Below, piece after piece: positions 8,466-54,150 of a stretch of DNA of 64,000 bases (its first letter is position 1; every line of letters begins with the position of its first letter). The stretch is from positions 34,978 through 98,977 of the forward strand of contig JAPLGO010000001.1 in the NCBI GenBank assembly GCA_026390115.1. The letters are read 5' to 3'. The notes beneath the pieces are model-generated. The model searched no databases and had not been told where the DNA came from. It saw only the letters and a program-made list of their open reading frames with translations. Origin of the DNA: Campylobacterales bacterium. GTDB taxonomy: Bacteria; Campylobacterota; Campylobacteria; Campylobacterales; Sulfurimonadaceae. The translations under genes were made by a program, and so were the position numbers.

Positions 8466-8468
8466 TTT

Positions 8469-9413: not shown

Positions 9414-9423
9414 CTCTTGCTCC

Positions 9424-10977
9424 TTAATGAACTGAACATGCAAGGCATGGATCTGTTGATCTTACTATTCTTGCCAACTCAATTGGATTATTCAGGTCTT
9501 TTATCCTTGTACCGATAAGCATTTTTTCAACAACACCTGGGGTTCCTTTTGCGTCTTTTGGCGAAATATTCCATGTTGTGGGAACAATCATGTCATAGTT
9601 TTTAATCAATCCGTTTTCGTCAGTCTCTATCCAGTGTGCCAAAGCTCCTCTTGTCGCCTCGGTCAACCCGAAGCCGACAGCATTCTTCGGAACATCCCTC
9701 TCTACAAAAGCAAGCTCGTTAGGAGCAACTTTTTCTATATCTTCAAGAATCTTATCAATAATGATGCTCGAAGCAATGGCACGGCAGAGATGTCTTCCAA
9801 GAACAGAGTTATACTCTTTAAATGTAAGATTCAACTTAGCGTTAATCGAATCGACAAGCGCATTTAACTTCTTATTTTTACCGCTTTTGTAAGTATTTAT
9901 AACCCTAGCAACCGGACCTACTTCCATAATCTCACCTTTATAACGCGGAGCTTTTGACCAGCTGTATTTTCCATTCTCTTTCTTCTGTTCTTCTTTAAAC
10001 TCATCATAATTTATCGGTGTAAGTTTTGTAGAATCAAGAGGCTTTACATTGGAGTCGGGAGTGCTTTTATAGTAGGAGTATTTGTGATCTTCAAAAATAT
10101 GTTTCAAATCAAGTGCTTCATACTCATCATCTATCGTTGCACCGCCTACAAAAAGGTGATTTTCCCCATTTTCATCTGGCAGATAGGGGTAAGAGAGGTA
10201 GTTTCCATATCCTGCTCCCATTTTAAAGTATTCCGGAAACTCTTTTGCTACAGCGATAATATCATTTATATAACTGTTTTTTATAAAGGTTTTAGCTCTC
10301 ATGACTAAAGATCTGTATTTTGCAAGTTTCTCAACTGTTGGTATCGTGGTAACTCCACCGGCTTCAATTGTAACGGAGTGAGGAGCTTTTGCACCGAAAA
10401 CGGCGACCGCTTTGGTTAAATCAGCCATAACTTTAATGGATTCAAGATAGTTTTTAATCGCAGTGAAATTTGTACTCTCTGATTTTGCATACACCGCTTC
10501 GTATCGCGGCAGGAATGGGGCTGCAGGAAATATTTTATTGCTTTTGAGCTCATTTTGAACCCAACTTTTTACACTAAGTGTACTCTCATCGTCTCCGTTA
10601 TACTTTAAAACGGCAGTTATATCTATAAAATCAAGCGCGCTTAAAACATAAAAATGAAGAAGGTGATCCTGAAGTTGATACGCACCGACAATCATATTTC
10701 TTAGAAGCTGTCCGTTGTGGTTAGGTTTGATTCCCATTGCATTTTCCAGTGCGAGAGAGGCTGCCTCGGCATGAGCATAGGGACAAACTCCGCAGACCCT
10801 CTGTGTTACTTGCTGTGCAACTCTGGCATCATAACCGATAAGTGCCTTTTCTATTCCTCTGAACATCTCTGCAGAGCATTTCGCCTCTGTTACAACCCCG
10901 TCTTCTACTTTTGTCTCAACTTTAAGATGTCCCTCAATTCTTGTAAGCGGATCAATAGTAATTTTTTGTACTGCCAT
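9424..10977 (-). CDS. [NiFe]-hydrogenase large subunit (group 1a-like), no C-terminal extension
   Basis: IDPLTRIEGH, L1 QRVCGVC, L2 DPCLACSVH followed directly by TAA. Confidence 0.93.
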   Translation of the reverse strand: MAVQKITIDPLTRIEGHLKVETKVEDGVVTEAKCSAEMFRGIEKALIGYDARVAQQVTQRVCGVCPYAHAEAASLALENAMGIKPNHNGQLLRNMIVGAYQLQDHLLHFYVLSALDFIDITAVLKYNGDDESTLSVKSWVQNELKSNKIFPAAPFLPRYEAVYAKSESTNFTAIKNYLESIKVMADLTKAVAVFGAKAPHSVTIEAGGVTTIPTVEKLAKYRSLVMRAKTFIKNSYINDIIAVAKEFPEYFKMGAGYGNYLSYPYLPDENGENHLFVGGATIDDEYEALDLKHIFEDHKYSYYKSTPDSNVKPLDSTKLTPINYDEFKEEQKKENGKYSWSKAPRYKGEIMEVGPVARVINTYKSGKNKKLNALVDSINAKLNLTFKEYNSVLGRHLCRAIASSIIIDKILEDIEKVAPNELAFVERDVPKNAVGFGLTEATRGALAHWIETDENGLIKNYDMIVPTTWNISPKDAKGTPGVVEKMLIGTRIKDLNNPIELARIVRSTDPCLACSVH

Positions 10978-16968: not shown

Positions 16969-17787
16969 TTATTGGAGCAGCTTGAGAACATTCTGCTGAA
17001 CGGCATTCGCCTGACTCATAGCATAAGAGCCTGATTGTGCAAGAATATTATGTTTTGCAAAGCTTGCACTCTCTTCTGCAAAGTCAACATCCCTGATATT
17101 TGATTCTGCGGCTGAAACATTCACTTGAGTGATTGATATATTTCTCACGGTTGACTCTAGTTGGTTTTGTGCAGCACCCAGTGTTGCTCTTAATCCATCC
17201 ACTGCTTTGAGTGAACTGTCCATCATAGATATAATGGTTGCAGAACTAGCCTGAGTTGAAAAAGTAGCTAATTGATTTGCAAATAAAGATGTAGTTTTCA
17301 TACTACTTACTGTTGTAATAGTAGTATCACCTCTATATGCGCCAACTTGAAATGTATATGTTCCTGTAGTGCTTAAGAGTGGTTTGCCATTGAATTTGGT
17401 TTCAGAAGCAATGTGATTTAACTCACTTTGAAGTCTTATCATCTCTTTGGATATATAACTGCGAGAGCCACTATCTTGGGTATCATTGGCACCTTGAATT
17501 GCAAGAGTACGAATTCTTTGCAAGATATTTCCATACTCCTGCAGCGCTCCATCGGCCGTTTGAATCATACCAATACCATCATTTGCATTTTTTATGGCTT
17601 GACCTAAGCCGTTGGCTTGTGCGGAGAGTTTATTTGCAATTGCCAAACCTGCCGAATCATCAGCCGCTTTATTTATTCTTAGACCTGAGCTTAATGCATT
17701 AAGACTTTTATCCAGTCCGACATTATTCATCGTAGCTTGCATGTGTGCATTCATCGCACCCACATTTGTATTTATTCTAAATCCCAT
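16969..17787 (-). CDS. Short flagellin, sigma54-type (FlaB-like)
   Basis: [43 protein letters not shown]; 272 aa. Confidence 0.95.
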   Translation of the reverse strand: MGFRINTNVGAMNAHMQATMNNVGLDKSLNALSSGLRINKAADDSAGLAIANKLSAQANGLGQAIKNANDGIGMIQTADGALQEYGNILQRIRTLAIQGANDTQDSGSRSYISKEMIRLQSELNHIASETKFNGKPLLSTTGTYTFQVGAYRGDTTITTVSSMKTTSLFANQLATFSTQASSATIISMMDSSLKAVDGLRATLGAAQNQLESTVRNISITQVNVSAAESNIRDVDFAEESASFAKHNILAQSGSYAMSQANAVQQNVLKLLQ

Positions 17788-17822
17788 AACAGATTCCTTA
17801 CGATTGACTATTTGTAAAACTA

Positions 17823-17839
17823 AAGCAAATAGTGTTCCA
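17823..17839 (-). promoter_or_regulatory. Sigma54 promoter of flagellin 16969-17787
   Basis: Minus strand TGGAACACTATTTGCTT: GG-N10-GC, Campylobacterota TGGAAC...TTGCTT type. Confidence 0.8.
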
Positions 17840-17872
17840 GAATTAAAAATGAAGGTTATTTAAAGGAAGGAA

Positions 17873-17899
17873 ATGCCAAAAGAATTTACTCTTTGGCAT
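17873..17899 (-). terminator. Probable intrinsic terminator downstream of the middle flagellin
   Basis: ATGCCAAAAGA-ATTTAC-TCTTTGGCAT stem with one bulge; similar to the hairpin at 18974-19004. Confidence 0.5.
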
Positions 17900-18044
17900 C
17901 TATATTGTATTCTGAGTTAAATTCAGAATTAAGAAACTAAAAAATGTGCTTGCTAATTCGAACCTCTAACGACTGTTATTACTGTAACAATCTTAACACA
18001 TTTTCTAAAGAAACATGCTTGCAACCAAGGCTGCTTTATTTAGA

Positions 18045-18859
18045 CTACTGAAGTAGTCTAAGCACGTTTTGCTGAACAGCATTCGCCTGACTCATGGCAT
18101 AAGAGCCTGATTGTGCAAGAATATTATGTTTTGCAAAGTTTGCTGATTCAGCTGCGAAATCAACATCTCTGATATTTGATTCTGCAGCTGCCACATTCAC
18201 TTGTGTTACAGAAATATTTCTAACTATTCAAGTTGGTTTTGAGCAGCACCTAAAGTCGCTCTGAGTGTATCCGTTACTTTAATAGCACTATCCATCATAG
18301 ATATAATAGTTGAAGCACTTGCCTGAGCAGTTAACCCGGCAATTTGATTTGCAAATAAAGTTGCTGTTTTCATACCGCTTATCGCGACCGTAGTTGTATC
18401 CCCTTTATAAGCACCTACTTGGAAAGTATAAGTTGTTGTAGCACTTAGAAGTTGCTTACCGTTGAATTTTGTCTCAGAAGCGATATGGTTAAGCTCACTT
18501 TGAAGTCTTAGCATCTCTTTACCGATAAAAGAACGGGAAGAGCTGTCTTGAGTATCATTGGCACCTTGAACGGCAAGAGTACGAACTCTTTGTAAGATAT
18601 TGCTATATTCTGCCAACGCTCCATCAACCGTTTGAACCATACCTATACCATCATTCGCATTTTTAATTGCCTGACCTAGTCCTTGTGATTGAGAAGAGAG
18701 TTTATCCGCAATTGCCAAACCTGCTGAATCATCAGCCGCTTTATTTATTCTTAGACCCGAGCTTAATGCATTAAGACTTTTATCGAGCCCGATGTTGTTC
18801 ATTGTAGCTTGCATGTGTGCATTCATTGCACCAACATTTGTATTTATTCTAAATCCCAT
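18045..18859 (-). pseudogene. Flagellin frameshifted by a 4-nt deletion
   Basis: ORF stops at 18224 (GAA TAG TTA GAA) where the paralogue has GAA TCA ACA ATT AGA. The conserved C-terminus continues in another frame to TAG at 18045. Total length 815 = 819 - 4 nt. Confidence 0.85.
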
Positions 18860-18931
18860 TTTAAATCCTTTTCGGGTAAGAGCCTTTCGCCCTCTTTAAT
18901 TTTGTTCAGCTTCCTTGCTGATACATCAATT

Positions 18932-18958
18932 ATATCGTCAGCTAAAAAAATAACTTTA
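18932..18958 (-). promoter_or_regulatory. Sigma28 promoter of the middle flagellin
   Basis: Minus strand TAAA-N15-GACGATAT. Confidence 0.7.
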
Positions 18959-18973
18959 ACCATTGTAACGAAA

Positions 18974-19004
18974 AAATGCCAAAGAGAGAATATCTTTGGC
19001 ATTT
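18974..19004 (-). terminator. Intrinsic terminator of flagellin 19031-19849
   Basis: Perfect 12-bp stem AAATGCCAAAGA/TCTTTGGCATTT, 7-nt loop, T-run on the minus strand. Confidence 0.75.
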
Positions 19005-19030
19005 GGAAATTAAAAATCTTTTACACTACT

Positions 19031-19849
19031 CTATTGAAGCAATCTTAATACATTCTGCTGAACAGCATTCGCCTGACTCATGGCATAAGAGCCTGATTGT
19101 GCAAGAATATTATATTTTGCAAAGTTTGCTGATTCAGCTGCGAAATCAACATCTCTGATATTTGATTCTGCAGCTGCCACATTCACTTGTGTTACAGAAA
19201 TATTTCTAATTGTTGATTCAAGTTGGTTTTGAGCAGCACCTAAAGTCGCTCTGAGTGTATCCGTTGTTTTAATAGCACTATCCATCATAGATACAATAGT
19301 TGCAGCACTTGCCTGTGAAGAAAGAGTTGTAATTTGATTTGCCAATAAAGAAGCTGTTAACATACCGCTAATTGCAGCCGTAGTTGTATCCCCTTTATAT
19401 GCACCGACTTGGAAAGTAAAAGTTGTCGTAGCACTTAGAAGTTGCTTACCGTTGAATTTTGTCTCAGAAGCGATATGGTTAAGCTCACTTTGAAGTCTTA
19501 CCATCTCTTTACCGATAAAAGAACGGGAAGAAGTATCCTGCGTATCATTGGCACCTTGAACGGCAAGCGTACGAACTCTTTGTAAGATATTGCTATATTC
19601 TGCCAATGCTCCATCTGCCGTTTGAATCATGCCAACGCCGTCATTTGCATTTTTAATAGCTTGACCTAAACCCTGAGATTGAGAAGAGAGTTTATTTGCA
19701 ATTGCCAAACCTGCTGAATCATCAGCTGCTTTATTTATTCTTAGACCTGAGCTTAATGCATTAAGACTTTTATCCAGTCCGATGTTGTTCATTGTAGCTT
19801 GCATGTGTGCATTCATTGCACCAACATTTGTGTTTATTCTAAATCCCAT
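19031..19849 (-). CDS. Short flagellin, sigma28-type (FlaA-like)
   Basis: Same flagellin N- and C-terminal motifs; 272 aa. Confidence 0.95.
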   Translation of the reverse strand: MGFRINTNVGAMNAHMQATMNNIGLDKSLNALSSGLRINKAADDSAGLAIANKLSSQSQGLGQAIKNANDGVGMIQTADGALAEYSNILQRVRTLAVQGANDTQDTSSRSFIGKEMVRLQSELNHIASETKFNGKQLLSATTTFTFQVGAYKGDTTTAAISGMLTASLLANQITTLSSQASAATIVSMMDSAIKTTDTLRATLGAAQNQLESTIRNISVTQVNVAAAESNIRDVDFAAESANFAKYNILAQSGSYAMSQANAVQQNVLRLLQ

Positions 19850-39362: not shown

Positions 39363-40466
39363 ATGAAGAAAAAATTAGTAATAAGCGCAATTGCGGCACT
39401 GGCAGTAACAACAACTTTATCAGCAGATTTCAGTTTCGGAGATATGTTTAAAGATATGAAAGACGGTGTTACATCAATGAGTAAAGATGCTAAAGATGCC
39501 GTTAAATCAGGCGTTGATGGCGGCGTTGAAATTTCTAAAAGCGGTGAAAGAACTGTAACTAGCGTAAGCAAAGATGCAAAAGATTCAGCTGTAAAAGCTT
39601 CTGATGACCTAAAAACTGCTGAGATTGCAACTGTGAAGAGTGGTTCGGATACAACAACCGGAATCAGCAGAGATGTAAGAGACAGTACTATTGAAGTTGC
39701 TGAAGATTCTAAAGATTCTATTTCTAATACCACAAGAGACTTTAAAGACAGTTCAACAATGGCTACAAAAGACTTTAAAGACAGTACTGTTTCTGTTTCT
39801 AACAACATGAACAACTCTGCGAACACAATGTCAAACAATGCTAACGATTCTACTAAAACAATCTCTAACAACATTAATGATTCAACAAAAACTGCATCAA
39901 ACAATGTTAACGATTCGACTAAAACAATCTCTAACAACATCAATGATTCAACTAAAACTGCATCAAACAATATAAATGATTCTACCAAGTCAATCTCTAA
40001 CAACTTGAATGACTCTACAAACACGATATCAAACAATGTAAATGACAGTACAAAAACTGCGTCAAACAATGTTAATGACTCAACTAAGTCAATTTCTCAC
40101 AACTTAAATGACTCTACGAACACTATTTCTAATAATGCGAATGATTCAACTAAGACAATTTCTAACAATGTGAACGACAGTACAAAAACTGCAACGAACA
40201 ATGCGAACGATAGCACAAAAACTATCTCTAACAATGTAAACGACAGCACAAAAACTGCAACGAACAATGCAAACGATAGTACAAAAACTATCTCTAACAA
40301 TGCAAATGATTCCAGTAAAACTGCAACAAGCAATGCTAACGATAGCACAAAAACTATCTCTAACAATACGAATGATTCAACTAAGTCAGTTTCTCATAAC
40401 ATCAACTCTGATGATTACAAAGACTACTTGAAATTAAAAGCAAAATACGAAACGAACAAAATCTAA
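39363..40466 (+). CDS. Secreted 11-residue tandem-repeat protein
   Basis: Signal peptide MKKKLVISAIAALAVTTTLSA, AAGGA RBS, 18 repeats of (S/T)NNxNDSTK(T/S)x. Confidence 0.85.
   Translation: MKKKLVISAIAALAVTTTLSADFSFGDMFKDMKDGVTSMSKDAKDAVKSGVDGGVEISKSGERTVTSVSKDAKDSAVKASDDLKTAEIATVKSGSDTTTGISRDVRDSTIEVAEDSKDSISNTTRDFKDSSTMATKDFKDSTVSVSNNMNNSANTMSNNANDSTKTISNNINDSTKTASNNVNDSTKTISNNINDSTKTASNNINDSTKSISNNLNDSTNTISNNVNDSTKTASNNVNDSTKSISHNLNDSTNTISNNANDSTKTISNNVNDSTKTATNNANDSTKTISNNVNDSTKTATNNANDSTKTISNNANDSSKTATSNANDSTKTISNNTNDSTKSVSHNINSDDYKDYLKLKAKYETNKI
39798..40391 (+). repeat. 33-bp degenerate tandem repeat, 18 units, coding
   Basis: 18 x 33 nt in frame; synonymous codons differ between units (GAT TCA / GAC AGT / GAT AGC). 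Confidence 0.9.
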
Positions 40467-40946: not shown

Positions 40947-42764
40947 ATGAAAAACAGAATAAAATTATTAATGATACCCATTGCTTTAATCAGCTTACTT
41001 CATGCACAGCAAGATGTAACACTTGCCCCTATTGAAGTAATAAGTGCCACAAAAACGGCTCAGTCTCTTAAAGATGTCACATCAGATATCAATGTTATAA
41101 CCAGCCAAGAGATAGAAGAAAAACATTACACAACAGTGGCTGAGGCACTCAACAGTCTCTCCGGAATCAGCTTTACAAACAACGGCGGACTTGGCAAAAC
41201 TACTTCCATAAATCTAAGAGGGTTTGATTCAAATAGAGTTTTAGTTTTAATAGACGGAATAAGATATAACGACATTACGGGACTATCGGGAGCTCCATTT
41301 TCTGATTTGATGATAAGCGATATAGAACAGATAGAAGTTGTAAAAGGAGCTCAGTCCGGTGTTTGGGGCGCGGACGCCACTGCCGGTGTGATAAACATTA
41401 TCACAAAGGGCTCAAAAAAAGGTCTTCACGCTTCTAGCAGTGCTGAAGCTGGAAGTTTTAATACAAAAAAATATGGTGCACTGGTTTCTTACAAGGATGA
41501 GAGCTACTATGTAAAAATAGATTCCCAAAAAATTACTACAGATGGATTTAGTGCTCAGGTTCCAAAAGGAGATGATATAAAAAAGTATGAGAAGGACGGC
41601 TATACAAACATGACTTTTAATTTTAAATCTGGTTTAAATCTTGATGAATCAAACAAAGTTGACCTATCTCATACCATCATAGATTCTTACTGCGAATATG
41701 ACGGATACAAAGACCCTAACGGGAATCTATACTCAACTACAAAAAATAGTTTTTCTCAAATCAACTTCAACCATGTTGATAGTTTCAACAAAATTAACAT
41801 TTATGCCAAAAAATCACTCTTTGAGAGGAATTATCCGCAAGGCTATACAAAAGCGTATAGCGGTGACGTTCAAGAGTATGGTCTAAAATCGAATATCCCC
41901 TATGCCGATAGGAGCTTTATAGTTATCGGCACTGACTATAAAATATTTGAACACAAAAATGAGTTAAACGAGAAATATAGCAATAAGGGTATTTTTCTTA
42001 CAAATAATAACAAATTTGATGGATTTACCGGTGGAAAGACTATCCTTACGGAGTCCGTCAGAAGTGATATTTACGATACGTTTGATGACAAAATTACCGG
42101 TAAACTAGGTGTCAAACACATCAGCGAAAAGATTCAAGGGCTTGTTACAAGTGCAAATATCGGAACGGCATATAATGTACCGACTCTTTATAACCTTTAT
42201 GATCCTATGTACGGAAATAGCAATTTAAATCCTGAAAACACTCAAAGTTATGATGTGACTCTCGGCTACGATGATTTCAAAATCACCTACTTCAACAGCG
42301 ATGTAACCGATATGATTGATTATGATTTTACAACTTCAAAGTACAATAATATAGATGGAAAATCTAAACTTCAAGGGTATGAACTGGAATATAAAACCAA
42401 CATAACAGATGCAATTGCGGCAAATGCAAACTATACATTGCTTAATGCCAAAAACAGCAATAACAAAATATTGGCCAGAAAACCGCAAAAGAGTATTAAA
42501 GCCGGTTTAGATTATTATGCGTCTGAAGCTTTGCATTTTGGTTTAAACGGCGAATATGTCGGCAAAAGATTTGAAAAAGATGATGAAAAAGGCATGCAAA
42601 CCGGAGAATATGCGGTTGCAAACTTTGTAGCCAACTACGATATTAACAAAAACTTTCAAACATACCTGAAAGTGGATAATATAACAGACAGATACTATCA
42701 GGTAGTGGATGGTTATGCAACTGCGTCAAGAAGCGGATATATAGGGATGAAGGCTCTTTTTTAA
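40947..42764 (+). CDS. btuB: TonB-dependent receptor, probable cobalamin receptor
   Basis: Plug motifs (INLRGFDSNRVLVLIDG, IEVVKGAQSGVWG), C-terminal F; cob gene neighbourhood. Confidence 0.8.
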   Translation: MKNRIKLLMIPIALISLLHAQQDVTLAPIEVISATKTAQSLKDVTSDINVITSQEIEEKHYTTVAEALNSLSGISFTNNGGLGKTTSINLRGFDSNRVLVLIDGIRYNDITGLSGAPFSDLMISDIEQIEVVKGAQSGVWGADATAGVINIITKGSKKGLHASSSAEAGSFNTKKYGALVSYKDESYYVKIDSQKITTDGFSAQVPKGDDIKKYEKDGYTNMTFNFKSGLNLDESNKVDLSHTIIDSYCEYDGYKDPNGNLYSTTKNSFSQINFNHVDSFNKINIYAKKSLFERNYPQGYTKAYSGDVQEYGLKSNIPYADRSFIVIGTDYKIFEHKNELNEKYSNKGIFLTNNNKFDGFTGGKTILTESVRSDIYDTFDDKITGKLGVKHISEKIQGLVTSANIGTAYNVPTLYNLYDPMYGNSNLNPENTQSYDVTLGYDDFKITYFNSDVTDMIDYDFTTSKYNNIDGKSKLQGYELEYKTNITDAIAANANYTLLNAKNSNNKILARKPQKSIKAGLDYYASEALHFGLNGEYVGKRFEKDDEKGMQTGEYAVANFVANYDINKNFQTYLKVDNITDRYYQVVDGYATASRSGYIGMKALF

Positions 42765-43621
42765 TGAGAAAACTTTTTTTACTTCTTGTACTAGCTATTT
42801 CACTATTTGCGGGAGAGAGGATAGTAGCCCTCTCCCCGTCAATCAATGAAATAATTTTTGCGCTAGGCAAAGGCGAAGAGATAGTAGGCAATACAAGCTA
42901 CTGCGACTACCCCGAAACGTCGCAAAAAATAGCAAAAGTCGGAGGCTACTTCGATCCCTCGCTAGAAAAAATTCTTTTCCTCAATCCAACCCTTGTCATC
43001 ATGCAGCAAAACAGCTACCAATTAAGCCAGAAGTTGCAGCAGCTTGGAATAAAAACACAAGTTGTAAAAATTGACACTCTCTCGGATATAAAAAGTTCTA
43101 TACTGGATATCGGAAAAACTTTAAACAGACAGCAGGATGCAGAAAAGATAGTAAATAACATAAATCAAGAGCTGCAAAAGCTAAAAAATATCACGGCAGG
43201 CAAGAAAATTCTAATTGTTATTGGACACAACACTTCCCTTTCTTCAAAAATTTTCGTCGCAGGTCAAAACCTTTATTTTGACGATATTATCAACGAGAGC
43301 GAAAATACGAATGCTCTTCAAAGCCAAAGGAAAGGACAACCGATTCTAAATATGGAAAATATTATTGCATGTAATCCCGATATTGTTATACTTTTGGCAC
43401 ACTCCATGCATGAAAAAGGTTTAAGTGAAAATGATTTAACGGCTCCGTGGAGAGAACTCCCGATAAATGCAGGCAGAACAAACTCTATTTACATTATTGA
43501 TAAACTCTACGCAGGCATTCCGAGCGACAGACTGGTATATTTTTTACAAGATTTCCAAGGGATTTTACATGATTACAAAAAAAATAATTTGCTTCATCCT
43601 ATAAAAGAGAAACTATACTAA
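42764..43621 (+). CDS. btuF: Cobalamin/iron ABC transporter substrate-binding protein (BtuF-like)
   Basis: RIVALSPSINEIIFALG, CDYP, VGGYFDPSLEKI. Confidence 0.75.
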   Translation: MRKLFLLLVLAISLFAGERIVALSPSINEIIFALGKGEEIVGNTSYCDYPETSQKIAKVGGYFDPSLEKILFLNPTLVIMQQNSYQLSQKLQQLGIKTQVVKIDTLSDIKSSILDIGKTLNRQQDAEKIVNNINQELQKLKNITAGKKILIVIGHNTSLSSKIFVAGQNLYFDDIINESENTNALQSQRKGQPILNMENIIACNPDIVILLAHSMHEKGLSENDLTAPWRELPINAGRTNSIYIIDKLYAGIPSDRLVYFLQDFQGILHDYKKNNLLHPIKEKLY

Positions 43622-43622
43622 C

Positions 43623-44315
43623 ATGCTAAAAATCAAACGCTTCAGCAATGCCATACTCAGCAACATAACCGTTCATCTAAAAAAGGATGAAAACCTTATC
43701 CTGCTAGGCTCAAACGGTGCAGGAAAATCTACTCTGGCAAAAGTTGCTTGCGGAATTATCGACTCAGACAGAGTTGAGCTCTTTGGCGAAAAATTGGAAC
43801 ACCTCGGTGCCAAAAAAAGAGCAGAATTTATAAACTACATTCCCCCAAAACTGGAGATATTTGACGACTACATCTCACTCAGAGAGTATCTTGAATTAAG
43901 CAGACTCTATTCGTCATTGAACGTTGATGAAGCTATATCACTTTTAAATTTAGATGCGTTGGCAGATAAGCCATGTAAAACTCTCAGCAGCGGCGAGCAA
44001 CAGCTAACCATGCTGGCATCTTCAATACTTCACAACGCAAAACTAACTATATTTGATGAACCGACAGCAAATTTAGACCCGAGCAAAACACTGCAGGTTT
44101 ACGAGATGTTAAAAAGCGATGTAATTAAAAACAGAATCATCATAACCCATGACTTGAATCTGGCTCACAAACTGGGGTATAAAATACTCTACATGCAAGA
44201 GGGAGAGGTAGAGTTTTTTGATGAGAATAAAAAGTTTTTTGAAGCGTCAAACTTGGAAAAACTTTTTGGCTCAAGCATAAAACATATAGATGGCTATTTT
44301 GTGGTGAATTTATGA
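43623..44315 (+). CDS. ABC transporter ATP-binding protein (BtuD-like)
   Basis: GSNGAGKST, LSSGE, FDEPTANLD. Confidence 0.85.
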   Translation: MLKIKRFSNAILSNITVHLKKDENLILLGSNGAGKSTLAKVACGIIDSDRVELFGEKLEHLGAKKRAEFINYIPPKLEIFDDYISLREYLELSRLYSSLNVDEAISLLNLDALADKPCKTLSSGEQQLTMLASSILHNAKLTIFDEPTANLDPSKTLQVYEMLKSDVIKNRIIITHDLNLAHKLGYKILYMQEGEVEFFDENKKFFEASNLEKLFGSSIKHIDGYFVVNL

Positions 44316-45256
44316 AGTATCTCTTTATTATCCTCTCAATAATTCTGCTTCTTACGGCTCCGTTCTTTGGGCAGATTGAGATAAATCTCTTCAATATCAA
44401 TGACCCTGCGTTTATGGAGTATAAGCTCTTCTGGGATTTGAGACTTCCTAGAATTATTGTTGCCTTTTTCACGGGTGCACTTCTTGGTCTGAGCGGTCTC
44501 ATTTTTCAATCGCTCTTTAGAAACCCTATGAGTACACCATTTACGCTTGGTGTGGCAAGCGGAGCGACCTTGGGAAGTGCCTTTGCAATAGTTTTCGGCT
44601 TTGTCACACTCGTTCCGGTTTTTGGTTTTTTTGGAGCGCTTTTAACCATTGCGATACTCTTTAGCATCACCTCAAAAATTAAAGGGTATGACACCACATC
44701 GCTCCTACTGGTGGGTATCGCTCTCTCATTTTTTTACAGTGCCGCGCTTATGATTCTCTTTTATCTCAGCAGTCAATCTCAAAGCTATGAGATAGTTCGA
44801 TTCACCATGGGAAGCCTCGATGTGGTTGGAATCAGAGATACCGTTCCTGTTATTGTTGTAAGTATTTTACTTCTTTTCATCTCCTTTAAATACAAAAAAG
44901 AGATTAAGATGCTTCTTACCTCCTATGACAACGCCTTTTTAAAAGGGGTAGAGGTTCGCAAAATCAACACTATTCTCTTGGTATCGGTCTCAGTCGCCAT
45001 TGGAGTTGCTGTGAGCATAACCGGACCTATCGGTTTTGTCGGACTCATCATACCCCACATACTCAAAACCATCTACAAAAAGAGTTCCGACAAACTGCTC
45101 TTGGCTACATTTTTTTACAGCGGTATTTTTCTCGTTGGGTGTGATTTGATAGCAAGAAATCTTGGTACCTCTTCGGATGTGCCCATAGGAGTTATTACCT
45201 CCTTTTTAGGTGCTCCGTTTTTTATATACCTCATCATCAGGAGAGAAAAAATATGA
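44312..45256 (+). CDS. FecCD/BtuC-family ABC permease
   Basis: LRLPRI, FRNP..TPFTLGV, GPIGFVGLIIPH. Confidence 0.88.
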   Translation: MKYLFIILSIILLLTAPFFGQIEINLFNINDPAFMEYKLFWDLRLPRIIVAFFTGALLGLSGLIFQSLFRNPMSTPFTLGVASGATLGSAFAIVFGFVTLVPVFGFFGALLTIAILFSITSKIKGYDTTSLLLVGIALSFFYSAALMILFYLSSQSQSYEIVRFTMGSLDVVGIRDTVPVIVVSILLLFISFKYKKEIKMLLTSYDNAFLKGVEVRKINTILLVSVSVAIGVAVSITGPIGFVGLIIPHILKTIYKKSSDKLLLATFFYSGIFLVGCDLIARNLGTSSDVPIGVITSFLGAPFFIYLIIRREKI

Positions 45257-46521
45257 GAGCTTTATGCATCAGCGCAACCGCTTCCAATCAAGGCAAAACA
45301 ATACTGACAACGGCTCTGCTCTACCACTTTAGAGATTCTGTGAGACCTTTCAAGATTGGACCGGATTTTATAGACCCCCAGTTCCATACCAAAATATGCT
45401 CCACCCCATCCGTAAACCTAGATACCTTCATGATGAGAAAAGAGCAGGTTCAATGGATATTTCAAAAATACAGTGACAAAAAGATCTCTATCTGCGAAGG
45501 AGTGATGGGCTTTTATGACGGAATGGAGAAGGGATGCAGCGCTTACGATGTCTCTAAACTGTTAGACATCCCGACCATTCTTCTTCTCGACGGAAGCTCT
45601 AGCTACATAACTGTCTCTGCCATTTTAAAAGGGCTCAAAACATACAGAGACGACAACACCATAAAGGGTGTGATTTTAAACAAGCTTTCTTCATCTTCCC
45701 ACTTCGAGCTTATCAAAAATCAGATTTTAAAAGATTTCTCGGATGTCGCTGTTCTTGGATGGATAAAAAATGATTTAATCTCTCTGGGCGATACTCATCT
45801 GGGACTTGATTTGGAGAATATCACAAAGATAGAGAGCGTTTCAAAAGAAGTACTTGAAAATATAGATATAAAAATGGTTGAAAATTTGGCTAATGAAACT
45901 CGGATGTGCAAAAACGAAGAGGCAACTAATAGTGAATGGTACCCCTTTAAGAAAATTCAAAAAATAGACAAAAAACTTGCTATTGTGAGCGATGCAAACT
46001 TCTCGTTTTTGTACCATGACAATGCCCAGTTTTTAAAAGAGATTTTTAGAGAGGTCAGTTTTGTCTCCTCCGTAAGAGATGAGAGCATCGACGCGGATAT
46101 TGTCTATATTCCGGGTGGCTATGTCGAAACAAAAGAGAGCTATGAGAGACTAAAAGAGTCGCATAATTTTAGAGATTCTCTCATAACACATGCAAAAACA
46201 AAACCCATATATGCCGAATGTGCAGGAATGCTCTACCTCGGAAACTCCGTGGATGAGAAGAAGATGTCTGGCATTTTAGATTTGGATTTTACCCTCCACA
46301 AGAGGTTCCAGAGAATGGGGTACTACTACAATTCCAAAAACATCAAAGGGCATGCTTTTCACTACACAAATATTCTAGATGAAAAAGAGGGAACGGATAG
46401 ACTCTTCAAAACAAAAAAAGATGAGGGAAAAGTTGGAAGCTGGCAAAAAGAGAGAGTTTTTGGAACCTACCTTCATGTAATGTTCAGAAGCAACACTGAA
46501 ATAATTGACACACTATTTTAA
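45253..46521 (+). CDS. cbiA: Cobyrinate a,c-diamide synthase
   Basis: SNQGKT, FKIGPDFIDP, EGVMGFYDG, YAECAG, TYLH. Confidence 0.88.
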   Translation: MRALCISATASNQGKTILTTALLYHFRDSVRPFKIGPDFIDPQFHTKICSTPSVNLDTFMMRKEQVQWIFQKYSDKKISICEGVMGFYDGMEKGCSAYDVSKLLDIPTILLLDGSSSYITVSAILKGLKTYRDDNTIKGVILNKLSSSSHFELIKNQILKDFSDVAVLGWIKNDLISLGDTHLGLDLENITKIESVSKEVLENIDIKMVENLANETRMCKNEEATNSEWYPFKKIQKIDKKLAIVSDANFSFLYHDNAQFLKEIFREVSFVSSVRDESIDADIVYIPGGYVETKESYERLKESHNFRDSLITHAKTKPIYAECAGMLYLGNSVDEKKMSGILDLDFTLHKRFQRMGYYYNSKNIKGHAFHYTNILDEKEGTDRLFKTKKDEGKVGSWQKERVFGTYLHVMFRSNTEIIDTLF

Positions 46522-46608: not shown

Positions 46609-47952
46609 TTAGAACATAAACCAGCCGACAAGATAGAGCGTGTTGTTGTCTGATGCGTTGCGACCTGCACCGTCATAGTTTGTTTTTGCTCCGTTAAATT
46701 TATCATACATTATATATTGCATGGTAAATTTAACTTGGTTTATAGGCAGATAATCAAGTTCAGCAATTCCATAGCTGCTATCCGGTGCCAATGTGCCTGA
46801 TGTTCCATATCTTGTAGCATCTACCTTTCCGGATGTTAAAGCATACCCAAGTGAAGCACCATACTTATGGTCATAACGATAACCGGCTTTTACTTTGGTC
46901 GTTGAGAGTGAATCAGAGGTATTATCTGAAGCTCCCATTTCATGGCTCGCGTCCAGCTTTGCCTCTTCCCATGTTTTTGACGCCGTAGCAGTAACATTAT
47001 GCATATCATGCGTGTATTGATACTCTGCATCTACCGCCATGTCATGGTAAGAATCTAATTTATTACTCCCTACTCGACTTACATTTGTTGCCATTGCATA
47101 AGTTCCAACCATAATATAATGGTCTCCAGCCTCTTGCTGAAGAGCGATACGACCATAAGGTGAAGCTCCATCTACCACTGGGTCGGAACCTCCATTATGC
47201 CAACCCAGTATTGATTTTGGTCCGCCGGCAGGAATTGTCTGATACGCTCCTAGCTCAGCATAAACAAGATCATTAAACATAGCATAAATACTTGCTCCAG
47301 CCACCACATGTCCAAGTCCGCCATCTATAAGCGTAGCTGCTGAAGGCGTTGGCGCCATAGAGGAAGTAACATATGGAAATCCCCATGCAGGCGTGGAGTT
47401 CCACAAATCTTGCACTGTCGGATTATTATTGACAGAAACCCCGTATACTAGCTCTTTTGTTAAAACCGTAGCAGAGTTTGCATAGCGTATATCAACATTA
47501 TCCATCGATATATAGGGTGCTACCGCTTTGTCTTGAGGAAGAAGTGTTCCGTCGTAGGTCATCTGTATAAACGCACCCACATTATCATAAATCTTTCCGC
47601 CATAAAAAAGGCTGACTTGCGGAATCACAAGCTCACCGTTTCTATTTTCGCCATTGCCGTTTACAACCGCGTTCGTGCCGTCAGGATTTTTACTCTTAGA
47701 GATAGTTGTAGCATCCGCCATAATCATCGCAGCTAAGGGAAGCGGCATTTTTGTATCTCCACCCCCCATCACATAACCACGCATTTTAAAATCACGCCCG
47801 AAATGGGTAAGTTCCGGAAAAACGGTATGACACACTGTGCAATCCAACCCGGTTTGGCGTGCAAAACTTGGAATCGCATAAACATTTTCAACACCTATAA
47901 TTGAAAGAAACAGTGATACGAGTGTAACGCCGGACAAAGATATATTTTTCAT
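46609..47952 (-). CDS. cyc2: Cyc2-like fused monohaem cytochrome c - porin
   Basis: Signal peptide, then IPSFARQTGLDCTVCHTVFPELTHFGRDFKMRGY (Cyc2 signature), beta-strand body, terminal F. Confidence 0.8.
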   Translation of the reverse strand: MKNISLSGVTLVSLFLSIIGVENVYAIPSFARQTGLDCTVCHTVFPELTHFGRDFKMRGYVMGGGDTKMPLPLAAMIMADATTISKSKNPDGTNAVVNGNGENRNGELVIPQVSLFYGGKIYDNVGAFIQMTYDGTLLPQDKAVAPYISMDNVDIRYANSATVLTKELVYGVSVNNNPTVQDLWNSTPAWGFPYVTSSMAPTPSAATLIDGGLGHVVAGASIYAMFNDLVYAELGAYQTIPAGGPKSILGWHNGGSDPVVDGASPYGRIALQQEAGDHYIMVGTYAMATNVSRVGSNKLDSYHDMAVDAEYQYTHDMHNVTATASKTWEEAKLDASHEMGASDNTSDSLSTTKVKAGYRYDHKYGASLGYALTSGKVDATRYGTSGTLAPDSSYGIAELDYLPINQVKFTMQYIMYDKFNGAKTNYDGAGRNASDNNTLYLVGWFMF

Positions 47953-48159: not shown

Positions 48160-48585
48160 ATGAGTTACCAATCCTGGTTTAATAAACATGCCGACAAGCA
48201 TACAACAATCGTAGAAAAACTTATCTCATGTGGAAAAAAAAGTGATGAAATCATCGACTATTTTGATTACGAGAACATGGTCAAAGAGGAGCCTGATTTT
48301 TGCCCTTTGTACAAGGAGAACAAAAAGTGCCATGCAATCGAGGAGCTTAACTGCTACCTCTGCGCCTGCCCTAACTTCCGCTTTAAAGATGAGGGGATTA
48401 AAAGAGTAGAAGAGAAAATGCAGTACAGTTTCTGCTCCATAAATTCAAAACATGGAATGCAGGGAGTTTATAGTGACAAAATCCACCAAGACTGCTCCAA
48501 ATGCGAAGTTCCGCATCTCAAAAGTTATATTACTGAACATTTTGATTTGAATTGGAAAAAGATTATGCAAAAGTGCACTCTATAG
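48160..48585 (+). CDS. Cysteine-rich small domain protein
   Basis: FCPLY..CH..LNCYLCACP.F...C...DCSKC.VPH; this type is typical of cobalamin gene clusters. Confidence 0.6.
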   Translation: MSYQSWFNKHADKHTTIVEKLISCGKKSDEIIDYFDYENMVKEEPDFCPLYKENKKCHAIEELNCYLCACPNFRFKDEGIKRVEEKMQYSFCSINSKHGMQGVYSDKIHQDCSKCEVPHLKSYITEHFDLNWKKIMQKCTL

Positions 48586-49383
48586 ATGGGTGTTAAAACT
48601 GCAATTACCCTTGATGCGTTAAACCGTCTCTTTACATCCTACGAATTCATCTCTTTAACAGAGACAACTTCGGGAATAATCGACACCACTTATATAGTTT
48701 TTACAAAAAACAGAAGCTACATTCTAAAAAAATACGAAAGAGCTATTTTACAGAAAATAGAAGAGGATAGTAGGCTTTTAGATGCGCTAAAACTTTTTGG
48801 GTTAAATGTACCGAGCTGCATAACAAGCTCTCATGGCTGGTACCTTTACGAAAAACTGGAAGGGTCGCAACCTACGCACATACAAAGCTATCACATTCAA
48901 GCTTTGGCAAGATTTTTGGCTAAATTCCATCAATACAGTTACAAAAAAGTCTCTCTTTTGAATGTGATAGACCAAGACGAAATATCCTCACACCTTCGCT
49001 ACGCCAAAGTAAACTTCTTTAATTACTATAAGAAACTGCAGTTTTTAAAAAAACATAGCAAAATAAACGATGGAGTTATTCACGGAGATATTTTCAAAGA
49101 CAACACGGTTTTTCAAGGTACAAAAATCGGAGTCTTCGATTTTATAGACTCGGCATGCGGCACTTTCGCTTTTGATGCAGCCGTTGCACTCATAGGTTTT
49201 GATACCAAAAAACAGAAGCGCTCTTTTGTAAACCTCTTTCTGGGCACCTACAACCAGCACGCCCCAAAGAAACTCTCCAAAAAAGAGCTGCTGCAATCCA
49301 TGGAGACGGCATGCGGATTTTACGCACTCAAGCGGATAGCAAATTTTAAAAGCACAAAAACAGCGAAGGAGCTGCTCAAATGA
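48586..49383 (+). CDS. APH / type II homoserine-kinase-like phosphotransferase
   Basis: GIIDTTY, GVIHGDIFKDN, GVFDF; ATGA overlap with cobD. Confidence 0.75.
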   Translation: MGVKTAITLDALNRLFTSYEFISLTETTSGIIDTTYIVFTKNRSYILKKYERAILQKIEEDSRLLDALKLFGLNVPSCITSSHGWYLYEKLEGSQPTHIQSYHIQALARFLAKFHQYSYKKVSLLNVIDQDEISSHLRYAKVNFFNYYKKLQFLKKHSKINDGVIHGDIFKDNTVFQGTKIGVFDFIDSACGTFAFDAAVALIGFDTKKQKRSFVNLFLGTYNQHAPKKLSKKELLQSMETACGFYALKRIANFKSTKTAKELLK

Positions 49384-50411
49384 AACATGGCGCGGGTATA
49401 TACAAAACAGCAAAAAAACTGGGGTGCGAAGCGGATGAAATCATAGACTTCTCATCAAACATAAACAGCTATAACCCTGACATTAACATAACCCTCACGG
49501 ACACCATGGTAGTAAAATACGGCGACAGCTCCTACTCTGAGCTGAGAAAAGCCATCACAAAAAAGTATCAAATCAAAAAAAAGCAGATGGCTCTATACAA
49601 CGGGGCGACCTCTGCTATCTTTGAACTTTTAAAAAATTTAAAAGAAAAGAGAGTTTACCTCTATGCACCTCTCTACGGCGAGTATGAAAAAGCTGCAAGG
49701 CAAGAGAATAAAAAAATAATCAAAATTAACCGTTTTACCGACCTCTATAAAAAACCGAAAAAAAACTCTCTAGTTGTCTTCGTAAACCCCTCCACTCCCG
49801 ATGGTAAATATTACAACTTAGAAAAGCTTTTTACCATTTGGAAAAAGCAAAACTGCACAATAATTTTGGATGAATCATTTTTGGAATTTGAGGGCCTCAT
49901 CTCTTTGAGAAACCAAATCAATTATAATAAAAAACTATACATAATCCAATCTTTTTCTAAATTTAATGCATGTGCAGGTGTAAGAATCGGAGCGATTTTC
50001 TCTGGTTTTTCAAATATTGAAAGATTAAAAACCCCTCTCTGGAATCTCTCCTCCTTTGACGCTCAGTTTTTAACACAGAGGCTCCAAGACAAAACCTTTG
50101 AGAACAAAAGCAAAGAGCTTCATCAAAGACATAAACAGGAACTTTTTAAGATTTTAGAAGAGTCAAAACTCTTCACTGAAATATGCAAAAGCGATTCAAA
50201 TTTTTTTCTCACAAAATCAGAGAGAGCAGATGAAATTTTTGAGCATCTTCTGAAACATAAAATTTTGGTAAGAACATGCGGAAGTTTTGACTTTTTGGAT
50301 AACACCTACCTGCGCTTTGCGGTGAAAGAGACTAACATGCATAACAGACTAACAAGGGCATTAAGCAAATTCACTCCTTTGTATTTTCAAGCAAATGTAG
50401 TAGAATATTAA
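49380..50411 (+). CDS. cobD: L-threonine-O-3-phosphate decarboxylase (PLP class I/II)
   Basis: KHGAG, IDFSSNIN, FVNPSTPDG, ILDESF, SFSKF.A.AGVRIG, YLRFAVK. Confidence 0.8.
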   Translation: MKHGAGIYKTAKKLGCEADEIIDFSSNINSYNPDINITLTDTMVVKYGDSSYSELRKAITKKYQIKKKQMALYNGATSAIFELLKNLKEKRVYLYAPLYGEYEKAARQENKKIIKINRFTDLYKKPKKNSLVVFVNPSTPDGKYYNLEKLFTIWKKQNCTIILDESFLEFEGLISLRNQINYNKKLYIIQSFSKFNACAGVRIGAIFSGFSNIERLKTPLWNLSSFDAQFLTQRLQDKTFENKSKELHQRHKQELFKILEESKLFTEICKSDSNFFLTKSERADEIFEHLLKHKILVRTCGSFDFLDNTYLRFAVKETNMHNRLTRALSKFTPLYFQANVVEY

Positions 50412-50429: not shown

Positions 50430-51833
50430 TTGATTTCAAAGCATGCAGGTTCCATAAAAAGTAAAATAATTGTTGATATACTTTTTTATACCGTAGTAAC
50501 ATCACTTGTGTACTTTTTTTCAGCTAAAGTTGTTGCACCTCTATCCTTAAGCGAATCATCGAGTATTTTTGCAATATGGCCACCTACGGGAGTTGCTCTT
50601 TCATTTCTATTTTTTAGAGGTAAGATAGTTATCCCCGGCATTTTTCTTGGCACCTTCTTTTTAAATATGACTCTCAGCTCGCCAATTGTGGCATTTGAGA
50701 TAGCCATTGGTAATACAATAGGTCCGGTTGTAACCTATTGGCTCGCCAACAACAGTGCAATTAAAGATGATATTTTTTATGACACAGACACTATTATCTC
50801 CTTTATTTTTTACAGCATAATTGGTGCATTCATAACATCTAGCATGGGAACGACTATGCTGTTTCTTAATGGTCTTTTATCACATGAACATCAAATATTA
50901 GGATGGATGGTATGGTTTTTTGGAGACCTTATAGGCTTTATTATGATTACGCCTGTTTTTATCGCCTATACTCTGCAAAATAATATCTCTTTTGCAGTAA
51001 AAAGTCATATAGGAGAGATTGCACTTATTTTCACCGTCTTAATTATATCATCCGTCTTGATTTTTGGGTCAGGGTACTTTTTTGATGAGAGATACCCAAT
51101 TGAATATCTAATTCTCTTTCCGCTTATATGGTCAAGTGTTCGTTTAGGGCATGGTATTAATCTTATCTTTTTAATAGTTGTAACCATTTTAGCTATTTTA
51201 GGAACTTCATCAGGATATAGCCAATTTTCATACGAAGGGGACCATAAGCTCTCCTTGATAATGCTTCAAATATTTATCTTTACAGTAACATTTTCTATTT
51301 TAATGATGACAGCGCAACGCTACCAAACGATAAGAATACTTGATGAGAAAGATCAGCTAAGTCTTATAGATTCACTAACTAAAATTGGAAATAGAAGATT
51401 TTTTAGTGAAACTTTTAAAAAAGAGCTTGAAAAAAGCTATAGATATAAACATCCTATTTCTTTGATTATGTTTGATATAGACCATTTTAAGCAAATTAAC
51501 GACTTATATGGGCATCATAGTGGAGATATAGTTTTGCAAGAACTCTCTTTATTGATAAGTTCTCATCTTCGCTCAAGTGACTTTTTTGCGAGATGGGGTG
51601 GAGAAGAGTTCACTATAATTCTTCCTGAAAACACTCTCTCTGAAGCTGTTTTAACTGCTGAAAAATTACGTAAATTTATTGAAGAATATCGCTTTACTAT
51701 AAACAAACAAGTCACATGTAGCTTTGGAGTTATTTTATGTGCTGATAATGAATTAACTGATGATGCTATCAACCGTGTTGATGCCAAGCTTTATGAGGCA
51801 AAAAAGAGTGGACGTAATAGAGTTGTATCTTAA
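50430..51833 (+). CDS. MASE1-GGDEF diguanylate cyclase
   Basis: IWPPTG (MASE1), many TMs, DIDHFK, RSSD I-site, ARWGGEEF. Confidence 0.9.
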   Translation: MISKHAGSIKSKIIVDILFYTVVTSLVYFFSAKVVAPLSLSESSSIFAIWPPTGVALSFLFFRGKIVIPGIFLGTFFLNMTLSSPIVAFEIAIGNTIGPVVTYWLANNSAIKDDIFYDTDTIISFIFYSIIGAFITSSMGTTMLFLNGLLSHEHQILGWMVWFFGDLIGFIMITPVFIAYTLQNNISFAVKSHIGEIALIFTVLIISSVLIFGSGYFFDERYPIEYLILFPLIWSSVRLGHGINLIFLIVVTILAILGTSSGYSQFSYEGDHKLSLIMLQIFIFTVTFSILMMTAQRYQTIRILDEKDQLSLIDSLTKIGNRRFFSETFKKELEKSYRYKHPISLIMFDIDHFKQINDLYGHHSGDIVLQELSLLISSHLRSSDFFARWGGEEFTIILPENTLSEAVLTAEKLRKFIEEYRFTINKQVTCSFGVILCADNELTDDAINRVDAKLYEAKKSGRNRVVS

Positions 51834-51854: not shown

Positions 51855-53240
51855 ATGAACTCCCTCAGCATATTCGGAACAAGCTCTGACGCAGGTAAAT
51901 CTACTCTCAGTTTTGCCATTACCTATCTCTTGCATCACCGTGGCATAAGAGTCGCTCCTTATAAGGCGCAGAATGTCTCTAATAACTCAAAGGTTTGTGA
52001 TGACGGTGGGGAGATTGCTATTCCTCAGCACTTTGCGGCGGAGGCTATCGGGATTAAAACCTCTCATTTTATGAATCCTGTTCTTTTGAAATCAGGCTCA
52101 AAAAACTCTGCACACATGATTATAAACGGAGAGAGTGTCGGGGAGAAGGATGTTTGGAGCTATTACATAGATATCGATACGCTCAAACCGCATGCCAAGA
52201 GGGCTTTTAAAAAGCTTCTCAAAGAGTATGACTGTATTGTGGCGGAAGGTGCTGGGAGTCCTGTTGAGTTGAACCTGATGAGCAAAGATTTATCCAACAT
52301 CTATATTGCAGACGAGTTTAACACCAAAATTATCTTGGTTGCCGACATAGAGAGGGGCGGTGTTTTTGCCTCTATCTATGGGGTCTATAATCTGCTTCCA
52401 AAAAAACTGAAGAATAATGTTATCGGAGTGATTGTGAATAAATTCCGAGGAGATTTGAGCCTTTTTGATGAGGGTGTGCAGATTATAGAGGAGAGGTTCG
52501 GCATCAAAGTGCTTGGTGTTGTGCCGTTTAGGCCCTTTAACCTCGGTTTTGAGGACAGCGCGTCCATTATGAACTATGTTCAAGAGCTAAGCAAAAGCAT
52601 CATAAAAGTAGGCGTTATAAAACTTCCACACATCAGCAACTTTACCGATTTTGAGCCGCTTGTAGCAGACAGTGAAATAGAGCTCTCCTTCATCTCAAGC
52701 CCGAGTGAGATTGCATCATGCCAAATAGTGATTATTCCCGGAAGCAAGAGGGTCATTGACGATTTGTTATGGCTGAGAGAGCGAGGATTTGAGGAGAAGC
52801 TCAGCTCAAAAGAGCAGAAAGTAGTCGCTATTTGCGGTGGGTATGAGATGATGTTTGAGCGTATTTTAGACCCTTGGCATGTGGAATCTGAAGAGGCAGA
52901 GACAAAAGGGTTTGGACGGATAAAAGGCGATGTGCTTTTTGAAAAAAAGAAAATTGTAAAGAAGGGAAAATACAATCTTTTTGGTGCCATTGTCGATGGA
53001 TATGAAATACATAACGGTGTTGCAAAAAAAAGAGCCAAAAAGAAAAAAAATCTCTATGGAACATTTGTCCATGGACTTTTTGAATGTGATGCATTAAGAT
53101 ATACTTTATTTAATGCTATTGACAAGCGCTACTCCGGCTACAGTTTTGGGGAGTACAAAGCCAAATCGATAAAGCAGTTTGCAAGACATATCGAAGAGAA
53201 TGTTGACATAAATTTTATACAAAGGGCACTCAATGAGTAA
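51855..53240 (+). CDS. cobQ: Cobyric acid synthase
   Basis: GTSSDAGKS, KAQNVSNNS, EGAGSP.E.NL, ISNFTDFEPL, ICGGYEM, GTFVHG. Confidence 0.93.
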   Translation: MNSLSIFGTSSDAGKSTLSFAITYLLHHRGIRVAPYKAQNVSNNSKVCDDGGEIAIPQHFAAEAIGIKTSHFMNPVLLKSGSKNSAHMIINGESVGEKDVWSYYIDIDTLKPHAKRAFKKLLKEYDCIVAEGAGSPVELNLMSKDLSNIYIADEFNTKIILVADIERGGVFASIYGVYNLLPKKLKNNVIGVIVNKFRGDLSLFDEGVQIIEERFGIKVLGVVPFRPFNLGFEDSASIMNYVQELSKSIIKVGVIKLPHISNFTDFEPLVADSEIELSFISSPSEIASCQIVIIPGSKRVIDDLLWLRERGFEEKLSSKEQKVVAICGGYEMMFERILDPWHVESEEAETKGFGRIKGDVLFEKKKIVKKGKYNLFGAIVDGYEIHNGVAKKRAKKKKNLYGTFVHGLFECDALRYTLFNAIDKRYSGYSFGEYKAKSIKQFARHIEENVDINFIQRALNE

Positions 53241-54150
53241 TATTTTAATAGCGCTATTCGCCTATCTGATAGACAGAGTTTTTGGCGAGTTCAGTTTTTT
53301 TAGCAAGAGCACATTGAAACATCCTGTCGTGGCTATCGGCGAAATGGTTAGCTATTTTGAAAAGAGATTCTATCAAGACTCTGTTTTGCGCGGTTTCTTT
53401 CTTGTCACTTTTATCCTAGCCATGACAGGCACAGCCGCCCTGATTGTAGATCATTTTTTGGCTGAATTCCACGCACTTTTGTACATCATTGCATCATCAT
53501 TTATAGCCTCCATGTTCATAGCGCACAAGATGCTTTACGACTCTGTAAAAGGTGTACTATCGACCGAAAATAAGAAAGAAGCAATCTCCCAGCTTGTAAG
53601 TCGTGATGTTGATAAAATGAGTGATAGCGACATATACAAGGCAGACATCGAGACCTATGCCGAAAATCTTAGCGACGGAGTTATCGCTCCGCTTTTTTAT
53701 CTTCTTCTTTTTGGACTTGTGGGAGCTGCTCTCTACAAGGCGATAAACACCATGGATTCGATGGTGGGATACAGAAATGAGAGGTATGAGAAGTATGGAA
53801 AAGCTGCCGCCATTCTTGATGATATTGCAAACTTTGTCCCCTCCCGCATAACCGCTCTCCTCATTATGCTGCTCTCAAAGCAGAAAAACAACTTCTCATT
53901 TTATGAGGATGCCAAAAAACATGAGAGTCCCAATGCCGGCTATCCAATCACCGCCATGGCGCAGGCGCTGGGGCTGAAACTAGGCGGTCCGACATATTAT
54001 TTTGACAAACTCAAAGAAAAAGCCACCTTTGGAGATGGCAAAGAGGAGATTACGAGTGAAGATGTAGAGCGTGCTTTAGAGTTTAGAAGCAAAATAGATT
54101 TAGCACTTTTAATTACACTTGTTCTTCTTTATCTATTGCTGAAGCTGTAA
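53233..54150 (+). CDS. cbiB: Adenosylcobinamide-phosphate synthase
   Basis: HPVVAIG, VSRD, AENLSDGVIAP, KAINTMDSMVGYRN, SPNAGYP. Confidence 0.92.
   Translation: MSNILIALFAYLIDRVFGEFSFFSKSTLKHPVVAIGEMVSYFEKRFYQDSVLRGFFLVTFILAMTGTAALIVDHFLAEFHALLYIIASSFIASMFIAHKMLYDSVKGVLSTENKKEAISQLVSRDVDKMSDSDIYKADIETYAENLSDGVIAPLFYLLLFGLVGAALYKAINTMDSMVGYRNERYEKYGKAAAILDDIANFVPSRITALLIMLLSKQKNNFSFYEDAKKHESPNAGYPITAMAQALGLKLGGPTYYFDKLKEKATFGDGKEEITSEDVERALEFRSKIDLALLITLVLLYLLLKL

Follow-up and report, generated by a model that had tools for sequence, protein, structure and literature searches.

An APH-fold kinase encoded beside cobD, a candidate L-threonine kinase for B12 synthesis in Campylobacterota

The window, by which we mean the whole stretch of 64,000 nucleotides analysed from a Campylobacterales bacterium of the Sulfurimonadaceae, carries a cluster of corrinoid uptake and B12 synthesis genes in which a small kinase gene overlaps cobD. 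The genes of this cluster, and one unrelated gene among them, are as follows.

40947..45256, + strand: btuB-btuF-btuD-btuC-like corrinoid uptake genes, upstream
45253..46521, + strand: cobB/cbiA, cobyrinate a,c-diamide synthase (NF002204 over cut-off)
48160..48585, + strand: Cys-rich small protein, a distant PF04071 (zf-like) relative (weak PF04071 match)
48586..49383, + strand: APH-fold kinase, candidate L-threonine kinase (265 aa; PF01636; ThrB-II-related, separate family)
49380..50411, + strand: CobD, L-threonine-O-3-phosphate decarboxylase (PLP) (343 aa; best match TIGR01140, below cut-off)
50430..51833, + strand: MASE1-GGDEF (diguanylate-cyclase) gene (PF05231 and PF00990)
51855..53240, + strand: cobQ/cbiP, cobyric acid synthase (NF001989 and TIGR00313 over cut-off)
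53233..54150, + strand: cbiB, adenosylcobinamide-phosphate synthase, consumer of aminopropanol phosphate (TIGR00380 over cut-off)

Among the uptake genes, btuB has TIGR01779 as its best match, below the cut-off, btuF matches PF01497, and btuD and btuC are assigned by their translations and by conserved gene order. As the first-pass annotation had described, the kinase frame begins with the ATG at 48586, directly after the stop codon TAG at 48585 that closes the Cys-rich frame, and the kinase and cobD frames (48586-49383 and 49380-50411) overlap in the ATGA at 49380. The annotation also placed cobQ and cbiB downstream, which is correct, but had cobQ follow cobD directly, which is not, as the MASE1-GGDEF gene lies between them. 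Most relatives have no copy of that gene at the corresponding position, and it is outside the B12 pathway. No cobalamin riboswitch was matched in Rfam at the gathering score between 38000 and 56000, and a promoter scan at the locus gave a signal at chance level.

Several other genes of the window were recorded. The gene at 46609-47952 (- strand), an insertion separating cobB from the Cys-rich gene, encodes a 447-aa protein predicted to lie in the outer membrane, with an N-terminal CxxCH heme motif that follows PSFARQTG; it has no Pfam or NCBIfam match, the closest relative (L058) has no copy there, and we take it to resemble the Cyc2 cytochrome-porin of iron oxidisers. Farther upstream are a 367-aa secreted-looking protein with many 11-residue repeats rich in Asn, Ser, Thr and Asp (39363-40466, +), three short flagellin genes in tandem (16969-19849, +), the middle one of which (18224-18859) has an early stop and encodes 211 aa versus 272 aa in the other two, and genes for the small and large subunits of a [NiFe]-hydrogenase, with a chemoreceptor gene, amid flagellar glycosylation genes (6666-10977, -).

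The kinase has the APH fold and the motifs HGDIFKDN (166-173) and DF (185-186) on which the first-pass annotation was built, with a Pfam APH match of E=3e-21 (PF01636, 76.7 bits against a gathering score of 23.2). The predicted structure (pLDDT 90) finds the Agrobacterium ThrB 2ppq as its top Foldseek match (TM 0.81, E 2e-14), and its Atlas neighbours are a single cluster from Campylobacterota followed by homoserine kinases. The best NCBIfam match is the type II homoserine kinase PRK05231 (91.3 bits, cut-off 271), and TIGR00938 is matched at 59.9 bits, below its cut-off of 255.9; a Pelagibacteraceae control sequence exceeds both cut-offs. With E limited to 1e-30, a HMMER search of 1.8 billion representatives returned approximately 100 proteins, most of them 250-300 aa long. 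Beyond these the list passes to proteins of 310-330 aa, one adjoining polA and another DUF2782, like type II ThrB loci. Close homologues are labelled Sulfurimonas, and the JGI annotation of the kinase is type II homoserine kinase.

Invariant positions in 61 members of the kinase family are G30, K48, H115, H166, D168, F170, D172, N173, D185, Y222 and R250, and these include the ATP-binding lysine, the HxDxxxxN catalytic loop and the metal-binding aspartate (K48, H166, D168, N173, D185). F170, D172 and R250 are common to the family and ThrB II and absent from PnuC-linked kinases, a pattern that, to judge from the alignment, fits an amino-acid substrate if these residues have the roles we infer. 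The kinase shares with type II ThrB (PRK05231/TIGR00938; 2ppq) the APH fold, the HGDxFxDN and DF motifs, G30 and R250, and probably an amino-acid hydroxyl as the target of phosphorylation.

Such likeness would also suit a second, redundant homoserine kinase sitting by chance in a B12 cluster, given that ThrB II is the nearest characterised family by both sequence and fold and that the JGI annotation agrees. We regard this as highly improbable. The kinase scores at most one third of the ThrB II cut-offs and is approximately 55 residues shorter (median 265 vs 321 aa), and a column comparison of the 61 family members with 27 ThrB II sequences found conserved ThrB II positions altered (D for N33, T or V for N35, K for T48, F or Y for R245) and the C-terminal K-x-P not conserved in the family. 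The two groups are also separate in trees: a branch of 99 sets the ThrB II side apart from the kinase family in a quick IQ-TREE analysis, and 52 of the 53 family rows, including the fusion protein described below, group together at 96 in FastTree. Moreover, unlike type II ThrB, the kinase resides in cob clusters and coexists with a GHMP ThrB, present in every genome tested, and its gene was not found without cobD except in two incomplete MAGs.

Two sets of similar proteins were excluded from the family. One comprises weak matches in G303, G281, G302 and G379, of which the three examined adjoin a PnuC-like transporter gene and belong to another family. The other comes from Fusobacterium, lacks neighbouring cob genes and falls with ThrB II in the tree. 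The pairing with a PnuC-like transporter gene marks a separate Campylobacterota family of APH kinases (L150, L151, L152) that possibly serves salvage of thiamine or nicotinamide riboside.

The possibility, raised in the first-pass annotation, that the kinase is the only homoserine kinase of the genome is ruled out by a GHMP ThrB scoring over the cut-off in the same genome and in 55 of 55 relatives tested. The reported lack of pduX in the window extends to the whole genome, in which the only two GHMP matches are ThrB and IspE, and no pduX was identified among the GHMP matches of 43 relatives. Exactly two such matches occur in 36 of these 43 family genomes; the extra ones are two HddA-like genes, one duplicate and four without family assignment (G056, G110, G135, G149), and none is on a contig with cob genes. 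The kinase gene itself has no match to PF00288 (GHMP), and with its APH fold falls outside the GHMP type represented by PduX and BluE. The other APH gene of the genome is AmgK-like.

Co-occurrence with cobD, which had been proposed as a check, comes close to one to one across 150 genomes of the family: 46 have both genes, 100 have neither, 2 have the kinase only and 2 have cobD only. The kinase-only genomes are two MAGs (72% and 76% complete), and the cobD-only genomes are the complete genome G001 and another whose cobD is on a contig of 1 kb. In a phylum sample of 301 genomes, which overlaps the family sample by 11 positive genomes and in which, as in the family, related genomes are not independent observations, all 25 genomes with a kinase match at E up to 1e-30 also carry cobD, and 4 of the 29 cobD genomes are without the kinase (G001, G398, G406, G194). 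G406 has a divergent kinase of the ThrB II side elsewhere in its genome; G194 has no cbiB, and its cobD matches only from position 18. Because G001, G398 and G406 are near-complete and keep cobD and cbiB with the kinase missing, the kinase can evidently be lost or replaced. The two largest families of the phylum (90 and 124 genomes) gave no match for kinase, cobD or cbiB.

Gene neighbourhoods agree with this distribution. All of the best 29 relatives' loci within the family lie among btu/cob genes, and outside the family 10 of 13 kinase genes are within 2.5 kb of cobD and an eleventh is the last gene of a de novo cbi operon. Cob genes are near the kinase in 31 of 34 Campylobacterota loci, whereas in other taxa 46 ThrB-II-like loci showed none. 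The linkage of the kinase to B12 genes is far beyond chance. Gene order at the locus varies widely among Sulfurimonas, Sulfuricurvum, Sulfurovum, Nitratifractor, Halarcobacter and Arcobacter, and de novo operons also carry the kinase, in the order cbiK-cbiL-kinase with cobD next or not. The few members away from cob genes are L080, L139, L141 and P0296, the last adjoining his-like genes. Some relatives (L053, L057) that gave no match for cobD or cbiB still have cobQ adjoining the Cys-rich gene and btu genes.

The kinase is also found joined to CobD. In protein P0198 (637 aa), detected via the HMMER library, a whole kinase (1-275, E 8e-57) is in frame with a whole CobD (299-632, E 1e-123), and the gene is downstream of a btuB-like gene. 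An independent marine-sediment contig has a 634-aa fusion ORF that is 77% identical to P0198 over its length, and with a second assembly, this identity and one open frame an assembly artefact is unlikely. The fusion genes are at L162:8001-9914 and L174:168-2072; that of L162 is preceded by btuB and a gene for a 187-aa membrane protein, which presumably resembles BtuM. Searching a word index for longer homologues of the kinase gave no match. The predicted complex of the separate kinase and CobD scored 0.00, which counts neither for nor against interaction. From the protein sequences, the fusion is the strongest sign that kinase and CobD would act in sequence. Linkage to cobD and cbiB, which is also to be expected of a PduX- or BluE-like enzyme, is therefore present as co-occurrence, synteny and fusion, and suggests a role in supply.

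The decarboxylase itself has TIGR01140 as its best match by far (217.6 bits, cut-off 290.55; HisC 133) and combines an N-terminal His, a PLP lysine, two C-terminal arginines and a position in a cob cluster. Its invariant residues H3, S25, N27, K194, R298 and R312 align with those of Salmonella CobD (1lc5), where we assume that they bind the substrate phosphate and PLP. Since these residues are kept, a phosphorylated amino acid should be needed. The Sulfurospirillum decarboxylase 6oux (SMUL_1544) is reportedly specific for serine phosphate. According to PMC6249242 and PMC7242693, CobD uses threonine phosphate made by PduX or BluE.

These enzymes frame the question of whether the amino acid is threonine or serine. 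The kinase might be an L-serine or serine/threonine kinase, with CobD making ethanolamine phosphate for norcobamides; within the phylum, Sulfurospirillum is known for norcobamides, in which the linker is ethanolamine (PMC6759758), and specificity for serine as opposed to threonine is inseparable by sequence alone. Several observations make this reading unlikely. CobD scores 100 bits with 1lc5 and 52 bits with 6oux, which places it nearer to the Salmonella enzyme, and it has the short HG-G/A form of the N-terminus. The Sulfurospirillum norcobamide cluster resembles the present locus in phylum, in the linker-forming step and in carrying a PF04071-type gene, but has a divergent 392-aa decarboxylase and is itself without a member of the kinase family. 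G215 provides such a cluster as a natural control: its 6oux decarboxylase (E 3e-264), linked to norcobamides (PMC6759758), accompanies cbiB, cobU, cobQ and cobS, and there is no kinase family member. In addition, the genome has serB, so that phosphoserine is probably an ordinary intermediate of serine synthesis for which no dedicated kinase would be needed, and a dedicated kinase therefore points to threonine.

A different reading places the phosphorylation after decarboxylation, with an amino alcohol (aminopropanol, ethanolamine) or another cobamide intermediate as substrate. Choline kinases and a mycobacterial aminopropanol kinase belong to the APH superfamily, and in some clusters the kinase adjoins cbiB, cobT or bluB. 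However, an amino-alcohol kinase would bypass CobD, yet the kinase tracks and fuses with cobD; three genomes (G128, G002, G053) carry cbiB with neither cobD nor kinase; and CobD keeps, by alignment, the residues that we take to serve the substrate phosphate in the Salmonella enzyme. Other intermediates offer little more room, as the cobinamide and ribazole steps are already covered by CobU and by CobT/CobC. We consider this reading quite improbable, more so than serine. By comparison, the gene likely encodes a dedicated L-threonine O-3-kinase supplying CobD, an activity and substrate that we infer from sequence and gene context. The first-pass proposal of threonine phosphate supply thus gains support from the separate ThrB, the lack of a detected PduX, the co-occurrence with cobD and the fusion.

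The Cys-rich gene had been grouped with the kinase and cobD. It does abut the kinase, but it is not co-distributed with the pair: of 150 family genomes 129 have it, whether or not they carry cobD, and most of the 129 do not. On this ground it was rejected as part of a kinase-CobD module. The protein scores 14.9 bits against PF04071, below the gathering score of 27, and matches are weak in 22 of 22 homologues (best E 4e-5), with no fold match for its model above Z 4.1. It aligns to the PF04071-type protein of the Sulfurospirillum cob cluster (hhalign 72%, E 3.5e-5) over the pattern CH-x-CxxCxCP plus CxxCxxxH, Pfam matches being weak throughout. The gene is usually beside btu or cob genes, and elsewhere the protein forms fusions with CobT, with CobD and with a tetrapyrrole methylase; it is B12-associated and outside the kinase-CobD module. 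The fusions to CobD (L159:7001-8383, L160, L161) have no kinase gene nearby, their CobD match starts at position 9-11 with the N-terminal His absent, and the L159 cluster is without cbiB. They look like deletions across the kinase and probably reflect decay of the linker module.

In the proposed pathway the kinase (EC 2.7.1.177) would use ATP to phosphorylate the threonine hydroxyl, CobD would decarboxylate the resulting phosphothreonine, and the (R)-1-amino-2-propanol phosphate so formed would be joined to cobyric acid by CbiB. CbiC was not found in the genome, which is 100% complete; therefore ring synthesis is probably absent, and the cluster most likely completes imported incomplete corrinoids. 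These could be finished via CobB, CobQ, CbiB, CobU, CobS, CobT and CobC for a B12-dependent MetH. The cobU, cobS, cobC and cobT genes are elsewhere on the same contig, and a 1164-aa B12-binding protein of the genome is MetH by size and domain. A BtuR/CobO adenosyltransferase was not found in this genome, nor a PduO-type enzyme in 12 genomes (this one and 11 relatives, de novo producers included); with cobQ, cbiB and cobU present, this is another missing step in Campylobacterota. Relatives also have BluB-CobT fusions of a nitroreductase with an archaeal-type phosphoribosyltransferase (L157:4586-6292, L173:11645-13384).

To our knowledge, this family would be the first L-threonine kinase of a type other than GHMP, with the exception of an archaeal bifunctional CobD. 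The Methanosarcina mazei CobD is said to be both threonine kinase and decarboxylase, with a C-terminal Cys-rich domain. It reportedly resembles P0198 in holding both proposed activities in one chain, and a PF04071-like Cys-rich partner is also near the kinase locus here; its kinase activity reportedly resides in the CobD body, whereas here a separate APH domain or gene would provide it. PduX (Salmonella), BluE (Rhodobacterales) and DabA share with the kinase the proposed reaction and pathway position, from threonine to threonine phosphate for CobD, and differ in having the unrelated GHMP fold. PMC6249242 gives PduX and BluE as L-threonine kinases, and PMC10906522 gives PduX, BluE and DabA as GHMP enzymes. 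We found no description of the kinase family in the literature searched, and it is very probably a previously undescribed enzyme making phosphothreonine for B12. Its standing as a non-orthologous replacement for PduX is real and well supported. Only marginally less likely than the threonine activity itself is the broader proposal that this APH family is the standard L-threonine kinase of Campylobacterota for making and salvaging cobamides, is found naturally as a bifunctional fusion to CobD in at least one other lineage, and carries out the PduX step with an unrelated structure.

The source of phosphothreonine is a gap in B12 biosynthesis, because among verified cobamide producers most genomes carry no gene annotated as pduX (PMC6461909). 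The kinase gives a marker for this step, one that databases now label homoserine kinase or aminoglycoside phosphotransferase. On expression, BluE was unstable and DabA insoluble (PMC6249242 and PMC10906522), and an unrelated threonine kinase or a single-chain fusion could therefore help engineered B12 production. The kinase is a compact candidate for the phosphothreonine step in an entire phylum, whose bacteria live in vents, sediments and groundwater.
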